IMG/VR virus record: IMGVR_UViG_3300029319_007985
Coordinates: 1 to 64,000 of that record
Origin: a virus
Direction: 5' to 3' (one strand)
Length of the DNA stretch: 64,000 bases
Under the pieces are notes generated by a model that saw only the letters and a list, made by a program, of their open reading frames with translations, was not told the origin of the DNA and did not search any database. The first letter of the stretch is position 1, and each line of letters opens with the position of its first letter. Shown piece by piece: positions 4,593 to 53,141 of this stretch. The position numbers and the translations under genes are program-made.

Positions 4593-6029
4593 ATGGAATT
4601 TGCTATATTAATGGCAGGTATTGTTTACGGCTTAATCATTGGCCTAATACCAGCCGCGGGTGCTACGACAGGATTGATAACACTGTTTGGACTTATGCCT
4701 TACTTTGTTGGAGATCCATACTTAGGTGTAATCTTTTGTGTGGCTGTTGTCGCATCATCTACAACCGGTGATTCATTCAGTGGTGTGCTTCTAGGCATAC
4801 CCGGGGCCAACAGTGCGGCCGCAACAATGGTTGATGGTTTTCCAATGGCCAAAGATGGGCAGGCCAGCAGGGCCTTGTCTGCCGCTATAACTTCATCCAC
4901 GGTGAACGGACTGCTGTTTGGATCTTTGACCTTTTTATTTTTACCTTACTACACTAAGATTGTGATGTACATGGGCATACCGGAACTGTGGGCATTGGTG
5001 CTACTAGCATTTGTCACAGTTGGATTTGTCAGCACAAAGAAATATGTGCGGAGTGTGTGTGCCATTGTGCTAGGAGTTACACTAGGACTGGTTGGTGTAG
5101 ATGTCAACAATGTGCCTAGGTTTACTATGGGTTGGAGATATCTAGAAGATGGAATACAGATACTACCTTTCGTGGCAGGACTATTTGCTGTACCAGAGAT
5201 GTGGGAAGGCTGGCGTAAAAGAAAGCAGACTGCACAACACAAAGATTTAAAAGGCAGTTGGTCACAGATCAAACAAGGCATGTTGGACACAAAACAAAGT
5301 TGGCGAGACAGTTTCCGAGGAGGAGCCATAGGATCATTTATAGGATTATTGCCCGGCCTGGGAGGAGCAATGGCAGATTGGTTAGCCTATGGATCAACTG
5401 TGGCACGTAATCCAAAAGAAAAATTTGGTGTGGGTAATGTGCGTGGAGTAATAGGAGCGGAAGGAGCCAATAATGCCCAGAAGGCATCAAGTTTTATTCC
5501 CACGGTGTTGTTTGGAATACCCGGTGCGCCATTCGCCGCAATCCTTATGGGACTATTTTTATACATAGGAATAGATCTTGGATCACCTGATACATTTTAC
5601 GACGACAAACTATTTGACAGTATGGCATTTGCCTTCTTAGTTGGAACCATTATTACTGCTGTAATCTGTTATGGACTGGCCTACTTCGCAGGTTGGGTAA
5701 CCAAGGTGCCTTATGTTTATTATTTTCCTTTCATCATAGCCACAATATTATGGGCAACTTTACAGTACACAGGAGGCTGGGAGGACGTGGCTGTTCTTTT
5801 AATTTTCAGTGTGCTAGGATTATTATGCAAGAAATTTCAAGTTAGCAGACCCGCTCTGCTTATTGGATTCCTGTTAAGTGACAGGATATACAGTTTAAGT
5901 TATCAGATGACAACCCTACATAAGATAACTGACCTGGCAACCAGGCCAATATTTTTAACAATAATGGCGTGTGTTGTTTTTTTAATATATTGGGGTGTAA
6001 CAAAAAGGAGTAGAATAGATTATGCTTAA
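4593..6029 (+). CDS. tctA: Tripartite tricarboxylate transporter large permease TctA
   Basis: GLIPAAG, GIPG..AA.T..DGFPMA..G, GLLPGLGG, EGANNA, GIPG motifs; many TM helices. Confidence 0.9.
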   Translation: MEFAILMAGIVYGLIIGLIPAAGATTGLITLFGLMPYFVGDPYLGVIFCVAVVASSTTGDSFSGVLLGIPGANSAAATMVDGFPMAKDGQASRALSAAITSSTVNGLLFGSLTFLFLPYYTKIVMYMGIPELWALVLLAFVTVGFVSTKKYVRSVCAIVLGVTLGLVGVDVNNVPRFTMGWRYLEDGIQILPFVAGLFAVPEMWEGWRKRKQTAQHKDLKGSWSQIKQGMLDTKQSWRDSFRGGAIGSFIGLLPGLGGAMADWLAYGSTVARNPKEKFGVGNVRGVIGAEGANNAQKASSFIPTVLFGIPGAPFAAILMGLFLYIGIDLGSPDTFYDDKLFDSMAFAFLVGTIITAVICYGLAYFAGWVTKVPYVYYFPFIIATILWATLQYTGGWEDVAVLLIFSVLGLLCKKFQVSRPALLIGFLLSDRIYSLSYQMTTLHKITDLATRPIFLTIMACVVFLIYWGVTKRSRIDYA

Positions 6030-26004: not shown

Positions 26005-26045
26005 AATACTAGTTTAATGATTGTGCCAATATAGTCAAGTTGTAT

Positions 26046-26074
26046 TTGACACTAAATTGGTAACAGTATATAAT
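26046..26074 (+). promoter_or_regulatory. Consensus sigma70 promoter of the tmRNA
   Basis: TTGACA-N17-TATAAT. Confidence 0.85.
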
Positions 26075-26080
26075 TAAAAC

Positions 26081-26382
26081 GTAGATGTTGAAGTTGGAAA
26101 ATAGTTTCGACGGACGTGGGTTCAATTCCCACCACCTCCACCATACTAGGATTGGTGGCTTATGTAATCCCTTTCGGGGGTGACCTGGAATCGACGTGTT
26201 ATGAAAGTCCAATGGAGTTTACGCAGTAGACACGAGCATACGTTCATGTTTTAAATGCAAACAGAAAAGCATTAAGATTTGCTGACTTGGTAGCAATGCC
26301 AACAAGCGGATCTGCATTGAGACTAGCGGCCTAGTCCACTAGACTCTGGGGTTGGCAACTTACCTAGCAACAGAAAAGTTGC
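26081..26382 (+). ncRNA. ssrA: Circularly permuted two-piece tmRNA
   Basis: The acceptor piece ends GTGGGTTCAATTCCCACCACCTCCACCA (CCA ends at 26143). Intervening segment 26144-26175. The coding piece starts GGGGGTG (26176), giving an acceptor stem with a G3-U pair. Tag frame 26257-26334 reads ANRKALRFADLVAMPTSGSALRLAA*. A 3' CCTAGCAACAGAA motif is present. Ends approximate. Confidence 0.93.
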
Positions 26383-26434
26383 GTCATCATAGTAGCACTT
26401 TTCTTTTTTTAATTAATATCTAAATAAACTTACT

Positions 26435-44970: not shown

Positions 44971-45175
44971 TGCTGGGTGTTCATATTGTGAACAGGCAAA
45001 AAATCTATTGAAATCAAAAAATATAGAAGTCGAGGAGAGAAATATTGCTCTTGGAACTTGGACTGTTCAGCAGTTGCAAGAAGCAGTGCCAGGTGCTAGA
45101 ACAGTGCCACAAATATTTGTTGACGACAAATATGTGGGTGGTTTCAGCGAATTAAAAGAAATGTTGGATGGCTAA
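44948..45175 (+). CDS. Glutaredoxin
   Basis: CSYC, RTVPQIF, VGGF. Confidence 0.92.
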   Translation: MKAIVWSNAGCSYCEQAKNLLKSKNIEVEERNIALGTWTVQQLQEAVPGARTVPQIFVDDKYVGGFSELKEMLDG

Positions 45176-46298
45176 TAATAAATGTATTTTACCGTGGATA
45201 GCAGTAGACCGTAATCCTAAGACCCAAAAAGGAAAAATCACATTTTCTCCTTGTTGCTTTTTTGACACCTCTAAGAAATATAGGTCTGTTGCAGAATATT
45301 GGAACAGTGATGAAATCAAAGAACTGCGCCAATATTTTATCGAAGATAAAAGACATCCCGGTTGTAATCAGTGTTGGAATGCTGAGGACAAAGGAATAAA
45401 AAGTCTAAGGCAGTCAGTAAACGAGAGCAGGTTAGAAGAGTTTATAACAAGAACAGATACTACCACATGTGAAGATATGCCGGCACAGGTCAAATACACT
45501 GTTGGGAATCAGTGTAATCTGGCGTGTAGAATGTGTGTGCCAAATTCAAGTAGCAAAGTTAAAAAAGTATGGGACACACTCCAAATAGAAGATAAACTTG
45601 CTATCGATGATTTTGACTGGTATTCCTACGTAATTGAAAATTTTGACTCAATAAAGTATTTGGATATCACTGGCGGTGAACCTTTTTATCATAAAAATAC
45701 AAAGCAGATGTTAAATTTTCTTATTAGCAAAAATACTGCTAAAAACATAACACTATACATCCAAACAAATTTAACAATAATAAATGATGAGATAATAAAA
45801 TTACTAAATCAATTTAAGAAAGTTGTACTGAGAATCAGCATCGATGGTATAGGCAAAAGGCAGGAGTACATACGTCCCGGACTCAATTGGAAGTTGTTTG
45901 AAAAAAATATTAAGTTGTTAAAGAAAGAAAAATTTGACATGATGATTTCTCCGAGTCTAAGTGTGCTCAATATATGTACCTTTGAAGATTTAGAAAACTG
46001 GTGTAAAGAGAACAAGATAGGAATCTCACAACCGAGCATTGTTGAGTTTCCTGTGGAGATGGCGCCACACAACTTGCCTACTGCCTTACACAGTCTGGTA
46101 CCAAAAAAATTCAAAAAGTTTTTGGATAATCCAATAAATGCTGATAGTCTTAATTTTATAAGGAAGTTAGACAATTTTTGGAACACCGATATAAAAGAAA
46201 TCATGCCAGAATGGAAACTTGTCTATGATAGGTTGCATTGGTCCAACGTTGATCAACTTAAACAGATAGATAAAGAAACACAGAAGTATGTTGGATAA
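45168..46298 (+). CDS. Radical SAM protein with an N-terminal twitch-like Cys domain
   Basis: CILPW, PCC, C..CW..E..G..SLR, CNLACRMC, GGEP, ISIDG. Confidence 0.85.
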   Translation: MANNKCILPWIAVDRNPKTQKGKITFSPCCFFDTSKKYRSVAEYWNSDEIKELRQYFIEDKRHPGCNQCWNAEDKGIKSLRQSVNESRLEEFITRTDTTTCEDMPAQVKYTVGNQCNLACRMCVPNSSSKVKKVWDTLQIEDKLAIDDFDWYSYVIENFDSIKYLDITGGEPFYHKNTKQMLNFLISKNTAKNITLYIQTNLTIINDEIIKLLNQFKKVVLRISIDGIGKRQEYIRPGLNWKLFEKNIKLLKKEKFDMMISPSLSVLNICTFEDLENWCKENKIGISQPSIVEFPVEMAPHNLPTALHSLVPKKFKKFLDNPINADSLNFIRKLDNFWNTDIKEIMPEWKLVYDRLHWSNVDQLKQIDKETQKYVG

Positions 46299-47280
46299 GG
46301 AACTTTTTTTTAAATTAAAATGGTTAGTTGCAAAAAACGAACTGGTTAAACCAGACACTACAGGATCTTTTAGTTTTCAAAGACCAAAATCTGATTCAAT
46401 AATAGATATTCACACCAGAGTATCAGGCCTCCACCTTGGATTTTCTCCTCCGCGGACCGAATCAATACTAACTTGGATCAGTTCTGTTCCAGTAGACATA
46501 TTAAACATAGATAGATGGATTGTAAAAACACAGATAGACAACATGCCTGATATTGGTATCAGATGGTCAGAATACGAAATGACCGCCATGTCAGACACGG
46601 TTCATTGCGTGTACGAGTTCCTGCAAAAACATAGAGAACGTAAGCCTGTAATATTCAAAGGAGAATTTTGGTACTTTGATAAAATCATAGAAAATAAAAT
46701 TACTCGACTGGACGAACTCACAAAAGATTCAGTTCTCATAATAAGTTGTCCATTCATGGAACGCCTGCAAGTTAAAACAGATATGAATGATATATTACAA
46801 AGATGTTGTGAACTTGGTATTCCTGTGCTTATGGACTGTATATGGTTGCCGCTAACACATGAAAAGATATCTTTGAGAAACACCGATTGTATTGAACTGA
46901 TCACTCACAGTGTAACTAAGATGTTACCATTGGCTGGTATAAAAGGGGGATTTGCTTTTTACAAAAAACCCTTACCAATAGAAATGAGGCATAACGAAAT
47001 ACATGGAAAAATTGGTGCCTATTATCTGGATGAATTGATAAAACAAAAAGGTTATTGGCATGTTAGAGACTCACATGTCCAACTACAAGAAAAGTGGTGC
47101 AAGATCTTTGGTTTGGAAAAACACGAAGTCGTAATTGCTGGATGTCTTGGAAATGATAACACATTAAAGGACTACGGAGCAAAACACATAAACCCACTTA
47201 ATTTATTTTCGTTGGTTCCATATTTTAATCATGATAAGTCATGCACAAAATTTTTAGCAGACAACGGTGTTGAAACATAA
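46288..47280 (+). CDS. PLP-dependent aminotransferase-like protein
   Basis: IPVLMDCIW and HSVTKMLPLAGIKGG resemble fold-I PLP Asp and Lys motifs. Confidence 0.5.
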   Translation: MLDKELFFKLKWLVAKNELVKPDTTGSFSFQRPKSDSIIDIHTRVSGLHLGFSPPRTESILTWISSVPVDILNIDRWIVKTQIDNMPDIGIRWSEYEMTAMSDTVHCVYEFLQKHRERKPVIFKGEFWYFDKIIENKITRLDELTKDSVLIISCPFMERLQVKTDMNDILQRCCELGIPVLMDCIWLPLTHEKISLRNTDCIELITHSVTKMLPLAGIKGGFAFYKKPLPIEMRHNEIHGKIGAYYLDELIKQKGYWHVRDSHVQLQEKWCKIFGLEKHEVVIAGCLGNDNTLKDYGAKHINPLNLFSLVPYFNHDKSCTKFLADNGVET

Positions 47281-47287
47281 TACTTAA

Positions 47288-47316
47288 TTGACACTATCCA
47301 ACTTATGTCATATAAT
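47288..47316 (+). promoter_or_regulatory. Consensus sigma70 promoter of riboswitch-btuB
   Basis: TTGACA-N17-TATAAT. Confidence 0.85.
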
Positions 47317-47327
47317 ACATAGTAAGA

Positions 47328-47430
47328 CTGTGCTAAAAGCATAGTGGGAAAGTGACGTGAAATTCGTCCACATTACTTGATACGGTCATAGTCCGAATGC
47401 CACCTAGCACAGGACAGAGCAAGGAGACTC
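47328..47430 (+). promoter_or_regulatory. Class-II (AdoCbl-variant, env8HyCbl-like) cobalamin riboswitch
   Basis: CTAAAAGC.TAGTGGGAAAGTGACGTGAAATTCGTCCA.ATTACTTGATACGG...CCGAATGCCACCTAG...GAGCAAGGAGACTC; closing stem CTGTGCTA/TAGCACAG; SD in the terminal hairpin loop. Confidence 0.92.
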
Positions 47431-47432
47431 GA

Positions 47433-49262
47433 ATGATGAGATTAGTTCTTATGTTAATCTTGGTGTGGACATCTATCGCACACGCCAAAACGGAAAGTTG
47501 CAGTTGGGACAACGACGTTCCATGTGTCGTAATATCCAAACCAAATACAAATTTAATAAATGAAAAGGTGTCACCCAGCACGGTGATCACACAAGAACAA
47601 ATCAAAAAACATAATCTTTTGGACCTTAAAAGTGTTTTCAAGTTCCTCAACAACACAATTGCCGTGCAGTCAGGACCTACTGGACAACAGGCATCAGTTT
47701 TCATGCGAGGTACAAACAGCAACCACACACTAGTGTTATTGAACGGAATACCTATCAACGATCAAAGCACCACCAATGGTGCCTTTGATTTTGGACAAGA
47801 CTTCCTTTTCAACGTGCAAAGAATAGAAGTATACAAAGGTGCCGCTGGCGCACACTTTGGCGCTGACGCTATAGGAGGTGCAATAAATTTAATAACTGAC
47901 ATCGACTATCAAAATAACTTTTCAATAACAGGACATAACAATAGTAAGACCATAGAAGGAAACTATGCCTCTGAATACAATGGTTGGCAGTTTAACGTCA
48001 AAGGTGGATTGCATCAGTCTGAAACACAGTCGGCTCTAAAGGGAGGAACTGATCTTGACGGGACAAAAAATAAATCATGGACCGCAAGTGTAGTTAAATG
48101 GTTCAACGAAAAATTAAAATTTAGATCGAACCTCTTTACAAGAAATACTTTTAGTGATCTGGATGGCCATTCATTGGCCCTGCAAAATGGATATGACAGC
48201 GACAACAATCTTTATGCCTTCCAAACTGGGTTTGACTACTACACTAAAGACAGTCTCAGTTATGTCACACTGCACACCCATGGATATGACAGAGAGTACA
48301 ATAGTCCAGGCAACGAGTTCGACAACTATGAATCTGACGCCTACGTATTAAGAGCAGAACATAAAAAATACAAAGATGGGCCTTTCAAGTATGGACTAGG
48401 ATTTGAATACAAATACGATGTGGCCACGTTCACCAACAACGGATCATACAACAGCACATTGGATGGGGACTATGATAACATAGGACTATTTGTTAATTTT
48501 GGATATGAGTTCGACAACTGGGCAACCACGTTGAATCTAAGAACAGATGACAACAACCTCATAGGTAACAACGACAGTTACAAATTTGGGATATTAAGAC
48601 AGGACATATTGCCAAATCTCGATGTAAGTTTCAGTCGTGCAGAAGGGTTTAAAAATCCTAGTCTGTATGAAATGTTTGGTGCTGACAACTACGGATACAA
48701 AGGCAACATGGATTTGACAGCAGAAAACAGTATCCTCAACGAAGTCACGTTCGACTATGGTATTGACAAAAGCAAATACTCTTTGACATTGTTTAGAAAT
48801 CAAATAACAAACATGATCGAATACAGTTATCCAACATACAAAAACAATAGCACTGACTCTCTGGACCAAAGCGGAATCGAATTGTCCTACTCCTACAACG
48901 GAGATAAAAATAATTTCACCATTTGGGCAAACAGTCTCAGTAGTGAGAAAGGCAACAATTCAGCGCAGTTGAGGAGACCTGAGCATAGCATTGGTTTCAA
49001 TTATGAAAGGGTAGTCACCAACACATGGAGTTACTATGCAAACTACAACTTTACAGGCGAACACCATGACATACACAACAGTAATTGGAGCACAATTACC
49101 ATGCCCGACACCCACTTGCTTGATATAGGTATAACAAAAAATTACTATGGAATCGATTTAGGTTTAAGTATTAGCAATGTTTTCGACCAAGACTATGAAC
49201 AACCACATGGATTTAGTCAGGATGGAAGAAAAATTAATTTTATACTTAAACGTAGGTTTTGA
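47433..49262 (+). CDS. btuB: TonB-dependent cobalamin receptor (BtuB-like)
   Basis: Signal peptide; plug RGTNSNHTLVLLNG, RIEVYKG, GAIN; C-terminal F; riboswitch upstream. Confidence 0.88.
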   Translation: MMRLVLMLILVWTSIAHAKTESCSWDNDVPCVVISKPNTNLINEKVSPSTVITQEQIKKHNLLDLKSVFKFLNNTIAVQSGPTGQQASVFMRGTNSNHTLVLLNGIPINDQSTTNGAFDFGQDFLFNVQRIEVYKGAAGAHFGADAIGGAINLITDIDYQNNFSITGHNNSKTIEGNYASEYNGWQFNVKGGLHQSETQSALKGGTDLDGTKNKSWTASVVKWFNEKLKFRSNLFTRNTFSDLDGHSLALQNGYDSDNNLYAFQTGFDYYTKDSLSYVTLHTHGYDREYNSPGNEFDNYESDAYVLRAEHKKYKDGPFKYGLGFEYKYDVATFTNNGSYNSTLDGDYDNIGLFVNFGYEFDNWATTLNLRTDDNNLIGNNDSYKFGILRQDILPNLDVSFSRAEGFKNPSLYEMFGADNYGYKGNMDLTAENSILNEVTFDYGIDKSKYSLTLFRNQITNMIEYSYPTYKNNSTDSLDQSGIELSYSYNGDKNNFTIWANSLSSEKGNNSAQLRRPEHSIGFNYERVVTNTWSYYANYNFTGEHHDIHNSNWSTITMPDTHLLDIGITKNYYGIDLGLSISNVFDQDYEQPHGFSQDGRKINFILKRRF

Positions 49263-49888
49263 TGCAAGTTGATTACATAGACAAAATGGGCAGTGATCTC
49301 ACCGTGGTGAACGCCGCCAGAGTCAGTTACGCAAAAACAAAAGAACTAATGGACGCCAAGGATGAGAAACTTATCAAGTTTCTGGCAGAACACAACCATT
49401 GGTCACCTTTTGGACATGCATCTATACAGTTTCGTATCAAGGCACCAATTTTTGTTGCAAGACAACTTGTTAAACACCAAGTGGGATTGGTTTGGAACGA
49501 AGTTTCAAGAAGATACGTTGATTATCAACCTGAACTGTATGAACCAAAGCAATGGAGAGGTAGGCCCAAAAATAGTAAACAAGGATCGGACGGTGAAATT
49601 GAACTTGATAAAAACGAACAGTTTAGATTGAAAAACACCATGGAGCAGTGTTTGATCATATACAATTCACTTATAGAAATGAACGTGGCACCAGAGCAGG
49701 CAAGGATGGTTCTCCCTCAAAGTATGATGACCGAATGGTATTGGTCCGGCACTCTGTATGCATTTGCTAGAGTTTGTCAACTTAGATGTGCCAAAGATAC
49801 ACAGGAAGAAACAAGAGAGATTGCTGACCAAATCAGTGAACTCTGCGCCGAACACTTTCCTATTAGTTGGAAATATTTAAAAAAATGA
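49262..49888 (+). CDS. thyX: FAD-dependent thymidylate synthase
   Basis: VNAARVS, HWSPFGH, ARQLVKH, NEVSRRY, EQARMVLP. Confidence 0.96.
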   Translation: MQVDYIDKMGSDLTVVNAARVSYAKTKELMDAKDEKLIKFLAEHNHWSPFGHASIQFRIKAPIFVARQLVKHQVGLVWNEVSRRYVDYQPELYEPKQWRGRPKNSKQGSDGEIELDKNEQFRLKNTMEQCLIIYNSLIEMNVAPEQARMVLPQSMMTEWYWSGTLYAFARVCQLRCAKDTQEETREIADQISELCAEHFPISWKYLKK

Positions 49889-51438
49889 AAAAGAGAATAG
49901 CCTTACTGATCGCTCCTCGTATTCAAGACGATTTTGGTTACACGCCTGCAGGTGCATCATTGGTCAAGGCCGCCATAGTTAAAGCCGGTCATGAATGTAA
50001 AATTTTTGATTTTAATGCAGAACTAGAAAAAAGTTTTATGAACAAAAGGGAAGAACTGGTCCCAATAGACAACTGGTTCCTTAATCACAATTTTTATTCT
50101 GAAAAAGTTTATACTAAAATTATTGGCTTGGCACAAAAATGGATAGATGAAGTTTTTGAATATGACCCAACAGACGTTGGCATATCAGTCTTTTCATACA
50201 ATTCACAAAGGGCAACTATTCTGTTGTCGACTATGATCAAATCGAGAAAACCAGATATACCATTGTTTATGGGAGGCGCTGGCCTAAACACTGATAATAA
50301 TTTTGGGCCATATTGTTTGGAGCAAGGCATAATGGACTGTTGGATTCGGGGTGAAGGAGAACTATCTGTGCCTGCTTACCTTAATGGGGATATGTCCCAT
50401 CCTGGCCTTAATGGCATCCCACCAAAACAGATAGATAACATTGATGACCTTGAATTTCCTGACTACAGTGACTATGAACTAGCATCTTATACAAATAAAA
50501 AAGGACTTGTCGCTTTACCTATAACAGGATCCAGAGGGTGTGTAAGGGCCTGTACTTTTTGTGATATTGCCAGCATGTGGCCGAAATATAAATTTAGGTC
50601 GGGACATAGTATTGCTGAGGAGATAAAAACGCAAGTATCAAGATATGGAGCAAAAGCATTTAGATTTACAGATAGTTTGATAAACGGATCAATGAAAGCA
50701 TTCCGAGACATGACATATGAATTATCGGAGTATCGTATGAAACTTAAACCTGAGGATAGGTTCATTTGGGATAGTCATTTTATCGTTAGATCTAAAAAAC
50801 AGATGCCTCCAGAAGATTTTGAAAAAATGGCGCAGAGTGGTGCAGGCACTATGCTTATTGGAGTCGAGTCCGGATCACCAAAAGTGCGTGACCACATGAA
50901 AAAAGGATACAGTGATGAGGACCTACACTATAGTCTCAGCCAACTTTTCAAGAACAAGATCAAAGTTAGATTCTTAATGATCATTGGATATCCAGTAGAG
51001 ACCGAAGAAGATTTCAAATTGACTCTTGATTTTTTTGACCGATACGCACACTATGGAAAAAAAGGTTTAGTGGAAGAAATAAATTTAGGCCTTACTTTAA
51101 ATTTACTGCCAAACACTCCGTTGTATGACAATGCCGAGACACATGGCCTAGAGACAACTAAGAACCATATCAATGACTGGATATGTTTACAAAATCCTAC
51201 CCTTGATTTCAAAGAAAGATTAAAAAGAAGAATAATTGCCCAACATCATGTAGAAAAGTTAGGATACAAAGTTTTTGAGTCAAAAAATTATTTGCGGGCA
51301 CTTGCGATAGCATGGAATGAAGTAAGCAATATAAAAAACAAAAATATAACAAAGTTTGATGCCAGTAAGGTCAAGTTTGACAGAGAAAAAGGCATACTGG
51401 AAGAACAAAAGGATTTTGATCCATTGAGGACTTACTAA
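49885..51438 (+). CDS. B12-binding-domain radical SAM protein
   Basis: N-terminal B12-binding region (GISVFS, MGG, GEGE), SRGCVRACTFC, GVESGS, IIGYPVET. Confidence 0.88.
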   Translation: MKKRIALLIAPRIQDDFGYTPAGASLVKAAIVKAGHECKIFDFNAELEKSFMNKREELVPIDNWFLNHNFYSEKVYTKIIGLAQKWIDEVFEYDPTDVGISVFSYNSQRATILLSTMIKSRKPDIPLFMGGAGLNTDNNFGPYCLEQGIMDCWIRGEGELSVPAYLNGDMSHPGLNGIPPKQIDNIDDLEFPDYSDYELASYTNKKGLVALPITGSRGCVRACTFCDIASMWPKYKFRSGHSIAEEIKTQVSRYGAKAFRFTDSLINGSMKAFRDMTYELSEYRMKLKPEDRFIWDSHFIVRSKKQMPPEDFEKMAQSGAGTMLIGVESGSPKVRDHMKKGYSDEDLHYSLSQLFKNKIKVRFLMIIGYPVETEEDFKLTLDFFDRYAHYGKKGLVEEINLGLTLNLLPNTPLYDNAETHGLETTKNHINDWICLQNPTLDFKERLKRRIIAQHHVEKLGYKVFESKNYLRALAIAWNEVSNIKNKNITKFDASKVKFDREKGILEEQKDFDPLRTY

Positions 51439-52022
51439 TGCAAATAAAGATTATAATAGAACCTAAGTTCAGTAAAAAGTGGCCTAACCTTAAGATAAAA
51501 GTAAACAGCAAAACAATGTTCGATGATGTTTGTATGCCAAACAAAGAAAAGTATTTTGTCTATGACACTTCGCTGGAGAATATGAATGAGTTAAATCATT
51601 TGGAAATTATTCATCATGGCAAAAGCGGAGATGATACTGTTGTTGACAAAGAAGGAAACGTTATTGATGACAGAGCAATAATTTTGAAATCTATCGAGTT
51701 CGACAACTATGCTGTTCCTGAAGTGCTGTTGTATGAAAATAAATTTTTTCCGGATTGGCCTGACCAGCCTGAATACATTAAAAACAATTTGTATTTTGGT
51801 TTCAATGGCACTTATAGACTAGAGTTTATAAACGATGCAAAGAAGATGTATTTTAACAACCTCTTGGAGAAAGAGAGTCTGGCAAACATTAACAACAAAA
51901 AAATAGTGCAACTTCCATCCGGTAAGGAAATAGAGAGTTTTGAGTTCAATGGTGAACTTGTTGACAGTGAAAAGAAAGACAACGTGACAATCGATGACCT
52001 TTATAAGGCGGTGACAAAATGA
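51438..52022 (+). CDS. Hypothetical protein (paralog of the next gene)
   Basis: LKSIEFD..LY...FFP..GFNGTY.L. Confidence 0.6.
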   Translation: MQIKIIIEPKFSKKWPNLKIKVNSKTMFDDVCMPNKEKYFVYDTSLENMNELNHLEIIHHGKSGDDTVVDKEGNVIDDRAIILKSIEFDNYAVPEVLLYENKFFPDWPDQPEYIKNNLYFGFNGTYRLEFINDAKKMYFNNLLEKESLANINNKKIVQLPSGKEIESFEFNGELVDSEKKDNVTIDDLYKAVTK

Positions 52023-52435
52023 AGGTTAAAATAAATTTCCATTCCAAATACAATAAAACCAAACCCAAAATACGTGTATCAACAACAAATACTTCTGTTG
52101 ATACGCACATACCAGGCACAATGGATTTTGAAAATGAATTTGATATACTAAAGGATGACAATCTCATGATCGAGTTCCTTAACAAAGATGGAGTCGACGA
52201 CAACATAGTTTTCATAAAAAGCATAGAAATAGACGGGATAAATTTACAACACTACATATATGACGGAACATTTTTTCCTGAGTATGACAAGGACTGGCTT
52301 GAGAAACAGACTGTGACTCCCCCTAATTTTTATAGGCCTTGCACGGAACTAAGACTAAAAGGAAAATGGGAACTAAAAATAACTACGCCAATATGGAAGA
52401 TGATAATGGAGAAATGGTTGCATGACAATAGATAA
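52019..52435 (+). CDS. Hypothetical protein (paralog of the previous gene)
   Basis: IKSIEID..IY...FFP..KGKW.L. Confidence 0.6.
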   Translation: MKVKINFHSKYNKTKPKIRVSTTNTSVDTHIPGTMDFENEFDILKDDNLMIEFLNKDGVDDNIVFIKSIEIDGINLQHYIYDGTFFPEYDKDWLEKQTVTPPNFYRPCTELRLKGKWELKITTPIWKMIMEKWLHDNR

Positions 52436-53141
52436 TTTACCACGATTGTTACAAGACGCAATCAAGTCCAATGAATACGACATCAATGTGATCACAAAAC
52501 ATCTAAAACTTCCATGGCTAAAATTAGATCTTGATTTTGGTCTGGACGAAAATGATCACGATCAACTGATGAGCCAAGAGGATTGGAGAACAAAATGGAA
52601 CTTTCCTAGTTTAGAAGACAACTCTTATCAGGTCAAAAACTGGAACGGAAAAATATTTTTTGGGCCAAGAGACTTCTCTAAATTTCTAGACCTGTCTAAA
52701 AGCCACCAACACGACCACGACGAGGATAGTAAGTGCAGACTTTTTAGGAAAAAAATGGAGTATGGTTGGGCAACTGAAAGTGTCATTAAACAAAAAATAC
52801 AAAAGTTGATACCTGACGAAGATCTTAATTTGGTGAATTCTTACGTGCTTCCTCCTGGCGGCTATATCTTTCCACATAGAGATTACGCAATAGATGGGTT
52901 TGGATTGGCAAAAATATATGTTGCTGTACAATGGAAAAAAGGAAATATTTTTGGAATGTATGGCTGTGGCGATATACCAATCAAACAGGGTGATGTCCTA
53001 TTGGTAAACAATTACACTTTGCCTCATTGGGTCTACAATGGAAGCGATGAAAACAGGATAGTCCTCGATGTGTCTGCAAATTTGCAATCACCTAATATAA
53101 AAGACAGCATCATAGATGCCTTCAAAAAACATTTTCGGTAG
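52422..53141 (+). CDS. Aspartyl/asparaginyl beta-hydroxylase-like 2OG-Fe(II) oxygenase
   Basis: LPPGGYIFPHRD, PHWVYNGSDENRI. Confidence 0.75.
   Translation: MTIDNLPRLLQDAIKSNEYDINVITKHLKLPWLKLDLDFGLDENDHDQLMSQEDWRTKWNFPSLEDNSYQVKNWNGKIFFGPRDFSKFLDLSKSHQHDHDEDSKCRLFRKKMEYGWATESVIKQKIQKLIPDEDLNLVNSYVLPPGGYIFPHRDYAIDGFGLAKIYVAVQWKKGNIFGMYGCGDIPIKQGDVLLVNNYTLPHWVYNGSDENRIVLDVSANLQSPNIKDSIIDAFKKHFR

Follow-up and report, generated by a model that had tools for sequence, protein, structure and literature searches.

Why should a phage place the gene of a vitamin B12 (cobalamin) receptor behind a cobalamin riboswitch, and what could it do with the vitamin once imported? The question is raised by a six-gene operon at positions 47288 to 53141 of the window, by which we mean the whole stretch of 64,000 nucleotides analysed here, the first 64 kb of the IMG/VR virus record IMGVR_UViG_3300029319_007985 (172,389 bases, 47% complete according to CheckV; called G000 in the following). 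An earlier note on this DNA, made from the letters alone, had proposed that the phage senses B12, imports it and uses it for methylation-type chemistry of its own. Comparison with viral and cellular genomes leads us to favour, with a probability of about 0.62, a phage-borne module for B12 uptake and use under RNA feedback control, in which an env8-type riboswitch would govern a BtuB-like outer-membrane receptor and the imported B12 would serve B12-binding radical S-adenosylmethionine (SAM) enzymes. The RNA family is already known; what is new here is a phage-borne, riboswitch-controlled B12 receptor that is tied to B12-type radical SAM enzymes.

The order of sensing, import and use that the earlier note had claimed for the window appears to recur in other viruses. 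A pattern specific for the riboswitch subgroup was run on the IMG/VR contigs and on one genome each of 185,579 species, and in all 31 matching stretches (30 viral contigs and one contig of a metagenome-assembled genome, MAG) the riboswitch is followed by the receptor gene, bar one contig that breaks off before it. A profile of the receptor matched at least 116 viral contigs of up to 328 kb, from which 80 loci were kept for counting; the copies share conserved motifs at 28-59% identity. A B12-type radical SAM gene, either of the operon type or of a second type of 632 amino acids (aa), lies within about 6 kb of the receptor gene in at least 45 of the 80 loci, upstream, downstream or convergent and in at least four arrangements, and many of the loci counted as being without it end shortly after the receptor. 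Such neighbourhoods of receptor and enzyme in varying order make import and use look linked.

Promoter and leader RNA

The regulatory features and the receptor gene of the window are as follows.

47288..47316, + strand: sigma-70 consensus promoter (TTGACA at 47288-47293, 17 nt, TATAAT at 47311-47316)
47330..47410, + strand: class-II (Cbl-IIa, env8-type) cobalamin riboswitch aptamer with helices P1, P3, P4, P5 and P6 (RF01689)
47376..47379, + strand: L5 loop CUUG, one half of a kissing loop, complementary to CAAG at 47420-47423
47411..47416, + strand: 6-nt linker AGGACA between P1 and the regulatory hairpin
47417..47430, + strand: P13 hairpin GAG-CAAGGAGA-CUC, whose loop holds CAAG (47420-47423) and the Shine-Dalgarno (SD) sequence AAGGAG (47421-47426)
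47433..49262, + strand: BtuB-like TonB-dependent outer-membrane receptor of 609 aa, with signal peptide, plug, beta-barrel and C-terminal Phe

The consensus promoter announced by the earlier note is the only 12/12 match within 44.5-57.5 kb, a region in which the total count of promoter-like sites is no higher than chance. The transcript would probably start at about 47323, and a promoter of this type would suit early transcription by the host polymerase. Comparison with the Rfam covariance model, which the earlier note had recommended, gives a match to AdoCbl-II (RF01689) of 84.3 bits against a gathering threshold of 36.5 (E 9.5e-20) over the full model (positions 1-81 of 81), and this match is the sole one in the 172 kb of G000. 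The kissing interaction that had been proposed between the CTTG of L5 and the CAAG of the SD-bearing loop is borne out by their complementarity, and the ATG of the receptor gene stands just 3' of the P13 hairpin.

The viral copies keep this fold through compensatory changes. In an alignment that was itself fitted to the covariance model, 93.8% of the cells of the aptamer helices are paired, 14 of the 22 pairs show compensatory change, and none of 500 shuffles reaches the observed value on four of five measures, including the compensatory-pair count; the fifth measure, further pair types, was reached by 77 of the 500. Pairing drops to 25-48% when the partners are slid against each other. The L5/L13 kissing loop covaries as well, being found as CUUG/CAAG, CCUG/CAGG, CCAGG/CCUGG and CUCG/CGAG in different copies. 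In addition, riboswitch positions 42 and 62 (47371 and 47391 of the window) show perfect covariation among ten distinct copies, with C:G in the window, L004, L024 and L031 and G:C in the env8 clade. Since these two positions do not form a pair in the Rfam structure, they probably make a tertiary contact.

Relation to env8

The earlier note had described the RNA as very close to env8, a sequence whose 'env' label means that it comes from a metagenome (PMC10907184), which is also called env8HyCbl or env8Cbl-IIa and whose structures (PDB 4FRG and 4FRN) are those of Johnson et al. 2012 as cited in PMC6158498. For comparison, we took the seed alignment that Weinberg et al. 2010 give as a supplement (PMC2864571, file 200), in which eight rows have the CUUG / CAAGGAGACUC arrangement. 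The window aptamer is identical to row 8 (JCVI_SCAF_1096627830159) at 73 of 81 bases (90%) and in the entire P13 hairpin, in keeping with that description, and of the eight differences, six belong to covarying pairs, of which there are three (2:80 and 3:79 of P1, and 42:62). Row 2, a Global Ocean Sampling (GOS) scaffold, is nearly identical to the window and has the same promoter layout. The case that row 8 is env8 itself is strong but indirect: it is built on A9, G12 (in the wild type), U13 and A20 as published (PMC6158498, PMC13584995), on the 7-nt linker of wild-type env8 (PMC6158498) and on the row number, and not on the deposited PDB sequence; no env8 sequence in print was found in the literature checked, whose coverage did not include Johnson 2012 and Polaski 2017.

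The likeness extends to the elements that matter for function. The P13/L13 hairpin and the L5 CUUG are identical to those of env8. Of the elements that set its selectivity, positions 9-13 and 69-70 (PMC6158498), J6/3 69-70 is identical and J1/3 9-13 is the same except for position 12, which is A in the window and in the crystallised env8 variant and G in wild-type env8. The window RNA differs from env8 by the eight base changes and by its linker of 6 instead of 7 nt. With the SD sequence held in the hairpin loop, it has the predicted layout of a translational OFF switch, as does env8, for which measurements have shown that the kissing loop depends on ligand, that the ribosome-binding site becomes occluded and that mRNA is lost (PMC5028336, PMC10907184). 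Because the selectivity elements are the same as in env8, the window RNA is likely to prefer methyl- or hydroxocobalamin. A native context can now be seen for an env8-type RNA, namely a phage promoter and a phage-encoded BtuB-like gene; neither was found mentioned in the env8 papers covered here, Johnson 2012 and Polaski 2017 again lying outside this coverage.

Viral or cellular origin of the env8 subgroup

The earlier note had raised the possibility that some 'environmental' class-II riboswitches are viral, and had suggested that contigs be classified as viral or cellular. Against the 30 viral contigs that carry the subgroup-specific pattern, the 185,579 species genomes yielded a single contig of 2.9 kb (L031, JAIXHM010000262.1, 2915 bp, in a Flavobacterium MAG). 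Its G+C content is 28%, its open reading frames (ORFs) resemble those of G000, and the flank of its riboswitch is identical to the GOS scaffold JCVI_SCAF_1101668518363 (row 3), which makes it probable that phage DNA was mis-binned in a bacterial MAG. Among 151 Flavobacteriales genomes, five exceed the RF01689 cut-off; one is the probably mis-binned contig (87.8 bits) and the rest score 37-43 bits, and at this level of score weak class-II-like matches are present in cells. For the env8 subgroup, the possibility raised by the earlier note is supported, as far as sequence comparison can tell.

Exact copies of the env8 row are found in the viral contigs L008 and L020, the latter belonging to a 45.7-kb contig (G004) that is collinear with Pelagibacter phage Mosig EXVC030M at about 54-90 kb. 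Thirty-three of its 49 ORFs match those of Mosig, among them VrlC (65% identity over 2052 residues) and baseplate proteins (69-70%). A nucleotide search with the flank of the exact env8 copy gave no match, and it was the comparison with Mosig at the protein level that succeeded. On another env8-type contig (G002), the Gp23 capsid protein is 86.9% identical to that of Mosig. In Mosig-like phages, the cassette lies in a hypervariable cluster for host recognition and glycan synthesis, and its neighbours in env8-type phages are genes for a collagen-repeat fibre protein, glycosyltransferases, a DegT aminotransferase, radical SAM proteins and an Asp_Arg_Hydrox protein.

The cassette is absent from the cultured phages Mosig, HTVC008M and Melnitz, and when receptor and enzyme were compared by tblastn with 50,697 phage records, no true phage homologue came up; the matches obtained, contaminants of bacterial origin and one B12-radical SAM protein of a Streptomyces phage, were set aside. 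In a published survey, Riboswitch Scanner detected no riboswitches in pelagimyophages (PMC7029224), a record that is corrected by the env8-type leaders seen here. Glutamine riboswitches are known in Melnitz-like pelagimyophages (PMC9004378); they resemble the present RNA as a host-type metabolite-sensing RNA before an auxiliary gene in pelagimyophage-like genomes and differ from it in ligand class. In the literature, we found no report of a cobalamin riboswitch or BtuB-like gene in pelagimyophages, or of such a module. Published views on B12 in SAR11 are mixed (PMC9296465, PMC4771312), and a claim that the host does not use B12 was dropped for this reason.

The BtuB-like receptor

The receptor claimed by the earlier note has BtuB as its best match by profile, by sequence and by fold. 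The Pfam plug and barrel models score 76.7 and 67.8 bits, respectively, and the best families are two BtuB equivalogs, matched over the full length and below cut-off. The best PDB sequence is E. coli BtuB (E 3e-22, residues 46-601). An AlphaFold model (pLDDT 84, pTM 0.84) finds E. coli BtuB as all eleven best PDB fold matches, with template modelling (TM) scores of 0.78-0.86 by query and 0.86-0.90 by target; for the first match, these are 0.85 and 0.90 at a root-mean-square deviation of 2.6 Å. Siderophore receptors trail BtuB in this search with TM scores of 0.65-0.76 by target. The motif C-x-W-x-D-x-x-P-C-x-x-I is kept at the N-terminus, where a TonB box is expected, in a part that is modelled at low confidence. 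Its best matches and fold, together with its place behind the riboswitch and beside genes for B12 enzymes, suggest that the receptor would carry cobalamin.

The arrangement recalls btuB of E. coli, where a cobalamin riboswitch likewise precedes the gene of a B12 outer-membrane receptor made of plug and barrel and represses its translation. The E. coli leader is of class I (RF00174), whereas that of the window is of class II without the peripheral extension. Compared to the E. coli structures (1NQE-1NQH, 2GSK), the window receptor is 19-24% identical and lies below the TIGR01779 cut-off, and E. coli btuB is followed by murI, whereas the phage-encoded receptor gene is followed by thyX and a radical SAM gene. 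No btuF or btuCD is found among the genes annotated around the operon, their families not having been searched for. The receptors of env8-type pelagimyophages are only 535 aa long (L014 6288-7892, L012 3013-4617 and other env8-type loci); several segments are deleted in them relative to the 609-aa copy and E. coli BtuB, and they are unusually small for TonB-dependent receptors.

Downstream genes of the operon

Five further genes follow the receptor gene.

49262..49888, + strand: thyX, flavin-dependent thymidylate synthase; ATG 49262 lies in a TGATG overlap with the receptor stop
49885..51438, + strand: B12-binding (class B type) radical SAM enzyme of 517 aa; ATGA overlap with the thyX stop
51438..52022, + strand: 194-aa protein of an almost virus-only family; TAATG overlap
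52019..52435, + strand: 138-aa protein, weak paralogue of the 194-aa protein; ATGA overlap
52422..53141, + strand: 239-aa protein, candidate Asp/Asn beta-hydroxylase-like (cupin, 2-oxoglutarate-Fe) oxygenase; 14-nt overlap

All five junctions of the operon overlap, and neither a 12/12 promoter nor a terminator is predicted inside it; the 194-aa, 138-aa and oxygenase genes have SD-like sequences of their own. The overlap-coupled thyX described in the earlier note was recovered with 149.1 bits for TIGR02170 (cut-off 87.9) and 166.5 bits for Pfam Thy1, and a start at TTG 49259 was rejected in favour of the ATG. A role in DNA hypermodification for thyX and the radical SAM enzyme was considered and dropped, since the two genes are neighbours in some lineages only and ThyX itself is an ordinary equivalog. 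In the closest relatives of the window (L036/L037), the receptor, the enzyme, the 194-aa and 138-aa proteins and the oxygenase stand together and thyX lies 4 kb upstream, which marks thyX as a lineage-specific passenger outside the conserved module. The order of receptor and then thyX recurs in L067, L068 and L082.

The B12 radical SAM gene that the earlier note had named codes for a protein as long as its homologues, with 71.4 bits for PF04055 and a CX3CX2C motif (C219, C223, C226) that is invariant in 13 homologues. The B12-binding model PF02310 reaches a summed score of 33.1 bits in this frame, which is over the cut-off, and is precomputed on nearly all of the homologues, which number at least 781. 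When used as a profile, the 13 homologues find the cobalamin domains of both TokK (E 4.7e-7) and CysS (E 3.7e-5), so that on sequence grounds the identification as a B12-binding enzyme is probably correct. It shares an N-terminal B12-binding Rossmann-type domain and a CX3CX2C core with the class B enzymes TokK (7KDX), CysS (9N1B), PhpK and the C-methyltransferases of ribosomally synthesized and post-translationally modified peptides (TIGR03975). Unlike TokK, CysS and PhpK, it is assigned to no named subfamily: all NCBIfam radical SAM subfamilies score below cut-off (TIGR03975 87.7/281.85, PhpK 85.9/600, TIGR04072 80.9/360), and the enzyme belongs to a large unnamed family that is mostly metagenomic and viral. 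The 'methylation-type chemistry' of the earlier note is a guess at the level of the family.

Two paralogous proteins and an oxygenase, also named in the earlier note, stood in part. Both small proteins are present, but their paralogy is weaker than had been stated (24% identity, E 5e-5, aligned from the N-terminus). The 194-aa protein follows the enzyme in L036/L037, L082 and L113 and also accompanies it, away from any receptor, in another giant phage; family searches assigned it to none, and its neighbours are viral clusters. The 138-aa protein is conserved in L036/L037. The 239-aa gene is likewise present, but its reading as an oxygenase comes from a match to Asp_Arg_Hydrox (PF05118) below cut-off (16.4 against 22.6 bits) and from its language-model neighbours, the nearest Atlas clusters being viral with PF05118 on 15-45% of their members. 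It is probably an Asp/Asn beta-hydroxylase-like oxygenase, and an Asp_Arg_Hydrox gene pairs with the radical SAM enzyme in both lineages, in the operon of the window and in env8-type phages.

Leader types and other features of receptor-bearing phages

A riboswitch was found in 36 of the 80 receptor loci with a model that was built from the subgroup. Ten of the 36 leaders are of the type that forms the majority of the seed alignment, with CCAGG/CCUGG or CCUG/CAGG kissing loops and a long linker, and in eight of these ten loci the first gene codes for a small membrane protein, DUF6580, followed by the receptor. The DUF6580 proteins (PF20221, 169-174 aa, E 1e-40 to 1e-47) are found in L087 (5333-6016), L092 (5315-6007) and L101 (5342-6022), and further in L085, L091, L093, L094 and L096. 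As a guess from this context, DUF6580 could be a candidate inner-membrane carrier of B12. Its AlphaFold model (pLDDT 56.6) was too poor to search with, and its profile found in the PDB only 6fnp_A at chance level (E 3.3). In majority-type leaders, the regulatory hairpin is followed by a start codon with a stop directly after it or within three codons, some 40-60 nt ahead of the start of DUF6580: AUG UAA in L092 (about 5440-5450) and AUG AAA AGU UAA in L087 (about 5455-5470).

The window shares a common gene order with L068, L082, L067 and L036/L037 (ClpX, Hsp20, ClpS, glutaredoxin ... receptor, thyX, UDP-glucose dehydrogenase, AlgH). Among these syntenic relatives, the leader is env8-like in the window, of the majority type in L068 (5829-5907) and L082 (5828-5906), and absent from L067 and L036/L037, which suggests that leaders are swapped or lost by recombination. 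Two proteins are encoded directly upstream of the promoter, at 45168-47280 of the window, one a radical SAM protein of the N-terminal-twitch type (NF033640, 288 bits) and one of 330 aa, and the pair recurs near the receptor in L004/L102, L068 and L082.

Other features of the window and of related contigs are the following.

Window 26042-26385, + strand: permuted two-piece transfer-messenger RNA (tmRNA) gene of alphaproteobacterial type, 87.1 bits
G000 145478-147376: second B12-binding radical SAM enzyme, 632 aa, 94 kb from the operon
L121 2754-3314 and 4948-5940 (G007, 328 kb, direct terminal repeats), and G006 193017-195745: ExbB/TolQ-like and SbmA/BacA-like genes

A tmRNA gene is also found at 1975-2330 of L038, a second viral contig with a receptor. 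The gene of the 632-aa enzyme is followed by genes for a MoxR-type AAA ATPase and a DUF2201/VWA protein (G000 145478-149800, the same as L032 7479-11801), and relatives of this enzyme type adjoin the receptor in many other viral contigs. In the two giant receptor-bearing phages G007 and G006, the ExbB/TolQ-like and SbmA/BacA-like genes (E 1.5e-135 for the latter) stand beside DnaK and ClpS, and a TonB C-terminal domain was not found in either.

Proposed mechanism and points against it

On the favoured reading, transcription from an early promoter of host type would yield a leader whose fold is a class-II cobalamin aptamer of the env8 type. Bound cobalamin, probably a form whose upper ligand is small, as in methyl- or hydroxocobalamin, in view of the likeness to env8, would let the CUUG of L5 pair with the CAAG of the SD hairpin and so block the ribosome on the receptor gene; in reporter assays of env8, the mRNA level fell as well (PMC5028336). 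At low intracellular B12, the BtuB-like receptor would be made, exported and inserted by the machinery of the host and energised by host TonB, so that B12 entry into the infected cell would rise. The imported B12 would serve the two phage B12-binding radical SAM enzymes, the operon copy and the copy 94 kb away. Enzymes of class B cycle through methylcobalamin, and a preference of the riboswitch for methyl- or hydroxocobalamin would fit. The operon enzyme, its hydroxylase-like partner and the two small proteins might together modify a surface glycan or a structural protein; the pairing with the hydroxylase-like gene and the setting among glycan genes point to such chemistry at low confidence. 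The sequences themselves establish the RNA family with its structure and covariation, the gene families, the overlapping starts, the viral location and the conserved neighbourhood of receptor and enzyme; how the RNA responds to its ligand and selects it, transport with its coupling to TonB, the passage of the inner membrane and what the enzyme acts on are the inferred parts of this scheme.

Several observations weigh against the scheme. Forty-four of the 80 receptor loci, including the closest relative L036/L037 and two complete genomes, are without a riboswitch, and a check of eleven such loci with Rfam found none, so that regulation by B12 seems dispensable. The receptor scores 173 bits against a cut-off of 599.7 for TIGR01779 and 144.9 against 836 for NF007926; because it lies this far below the BtuB cut-offs, its substrate has to be judged from best match, fold and riboswitch. 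The single match of the enzyme to the B12-binding model PF02310 (28.5 bits) falls short of the cut-off of 32.1. In the 172 kb of G000, which is 47% complete, neither TonB_C and ExbB genes nor DUF6580 and an SbmA/BacA-like inner-membrane carrier were found, and uptake must therefore rely on host parts. Moreover, translational coupling at high B12 might lower the very enzyme that needs the vitamin.

Alternative explanations

It could be argued that the phage captured the operon from a host only recently, perhaps out of a surface-glycan island of the SAR11 type, and that the cassette rides in a variable region with its riboswitch as an inherited leftover. This is unlikely: its position in the hypervariable host-recognition and glycan cluster of Mosig-like phages, the restriction of the riboswitch to 36 of 80 loci and its change of subtype among syntenic relatives would fit a capture, but the spread of the receptor over at least 116 viral contigs at 28-59% identity with conserved motifs implies a long residence under selection, the aptamer helices keep their pairing through compensatory changes among the viral copies, and the env8 subgroup is present in essentially no cellular genome. 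Far less probable still is the view that the contig is not viral at all and that an ordinary bacterial btuB operon on a fragment of a small bacterial genome has been seen. G000 does have many host-like auxiliary genes (ClpX, ClpS, Hsp20, glutaredoxin, PstS, tmRNA), and its 172 kb contain no match to the Gp23, T4 portal and Terminase_6N families. All three are likewise unmatched in several fragments, and the T4 portal model matched nothing anywhere and is hence uninformative. On the other side stand the IMG/VR record with its completeness of 47%, the PHROG matches to tail spike and minor head proteins and a class Ia ribonucleotide reductase among its phage-type genes, and a gene set that is common to other viral contigs, with relatives of up to 328 kb that have direct terminal repeats.

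Control of the whole operon, by which B12 would set thyX and the radical SAM pathway as well through translational coupling and mRNA stability, has about as little in its favour as the capture of a host cassette. It would explain the five overlapping junctions between which no promoter or terminator is predicted, the recurrence of receptor and thyX in L067, L068 and L082, and the lower mRNA abundance under env8 repression (PMC5028336); in env8-type phages, however, the riboswitch stands over the receptor alone with the enzyme on the other strand, thyX lies apart in L036/L037, three of the downstream genes have SD-like sequences of their own, and it makes little sense to shut off an enzyme that needs B12 just when B12 is abundant. 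Somewhat more doubtful than this is a role of the receptor mainly at the cell surface, in phage exclusion, as a decoy or in a change of the envelope, to which control by B12 would be incidental. Phages and colicins enter cells via BtuB-type receptors, the gene lies in or near host-recognition clusters, and the env8-type receptors are trimmed to 535 aa by deletion of segments, all of which would suit such a role. It leaves unexplained, however, the repeated neighbourhood with B12-type radical SAM enzymes and the riboswitch with DUF6580 before the receptor in other phages, and conservation of the plug domain and of the candidate TonB-box region speaks against it. A module for B12 uptake and use under RNA feedback control remains the reading that we prefer.

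Implications

The env8 RNA serves as a standard model in work on the structure and folding of riboswitches and on the design of their ligands, and has been described only as an environmental sequence. Its occurrence in phage DNA, upstream of a receptor gene of the phage, provides it with a biological setting and with a native function that can be tested, and its viral provenance should be of interest to specialists of riboswitches and of marine viruses. That the receptor and B12-type radical SAM enzymes so steadily go together points to new B12-dependent chemistry in the host-recognition clusters of phages. A wider view, which we hold tentatively and at somewhat less than even odds, is that large marine phages, among them pelagimyophages akin to cultured SAR11 phages, run a B12 economy of their own with riboswitch sensing and a receptor, in some cases joined by DUF6580 or by SbmA/BacA-like and ExbB-like proteins; that this B12 feeds radical SAM enzymes which remodel glycans or virion proteins; and that env8 is viral and much of the marine RF01689 seed may come from phages. 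B12 is scarce and limits growth in the ocean, and import driven by phages, if true, would be a new form of auxiliary metabolism and a new sink or route in the cycling of B12.

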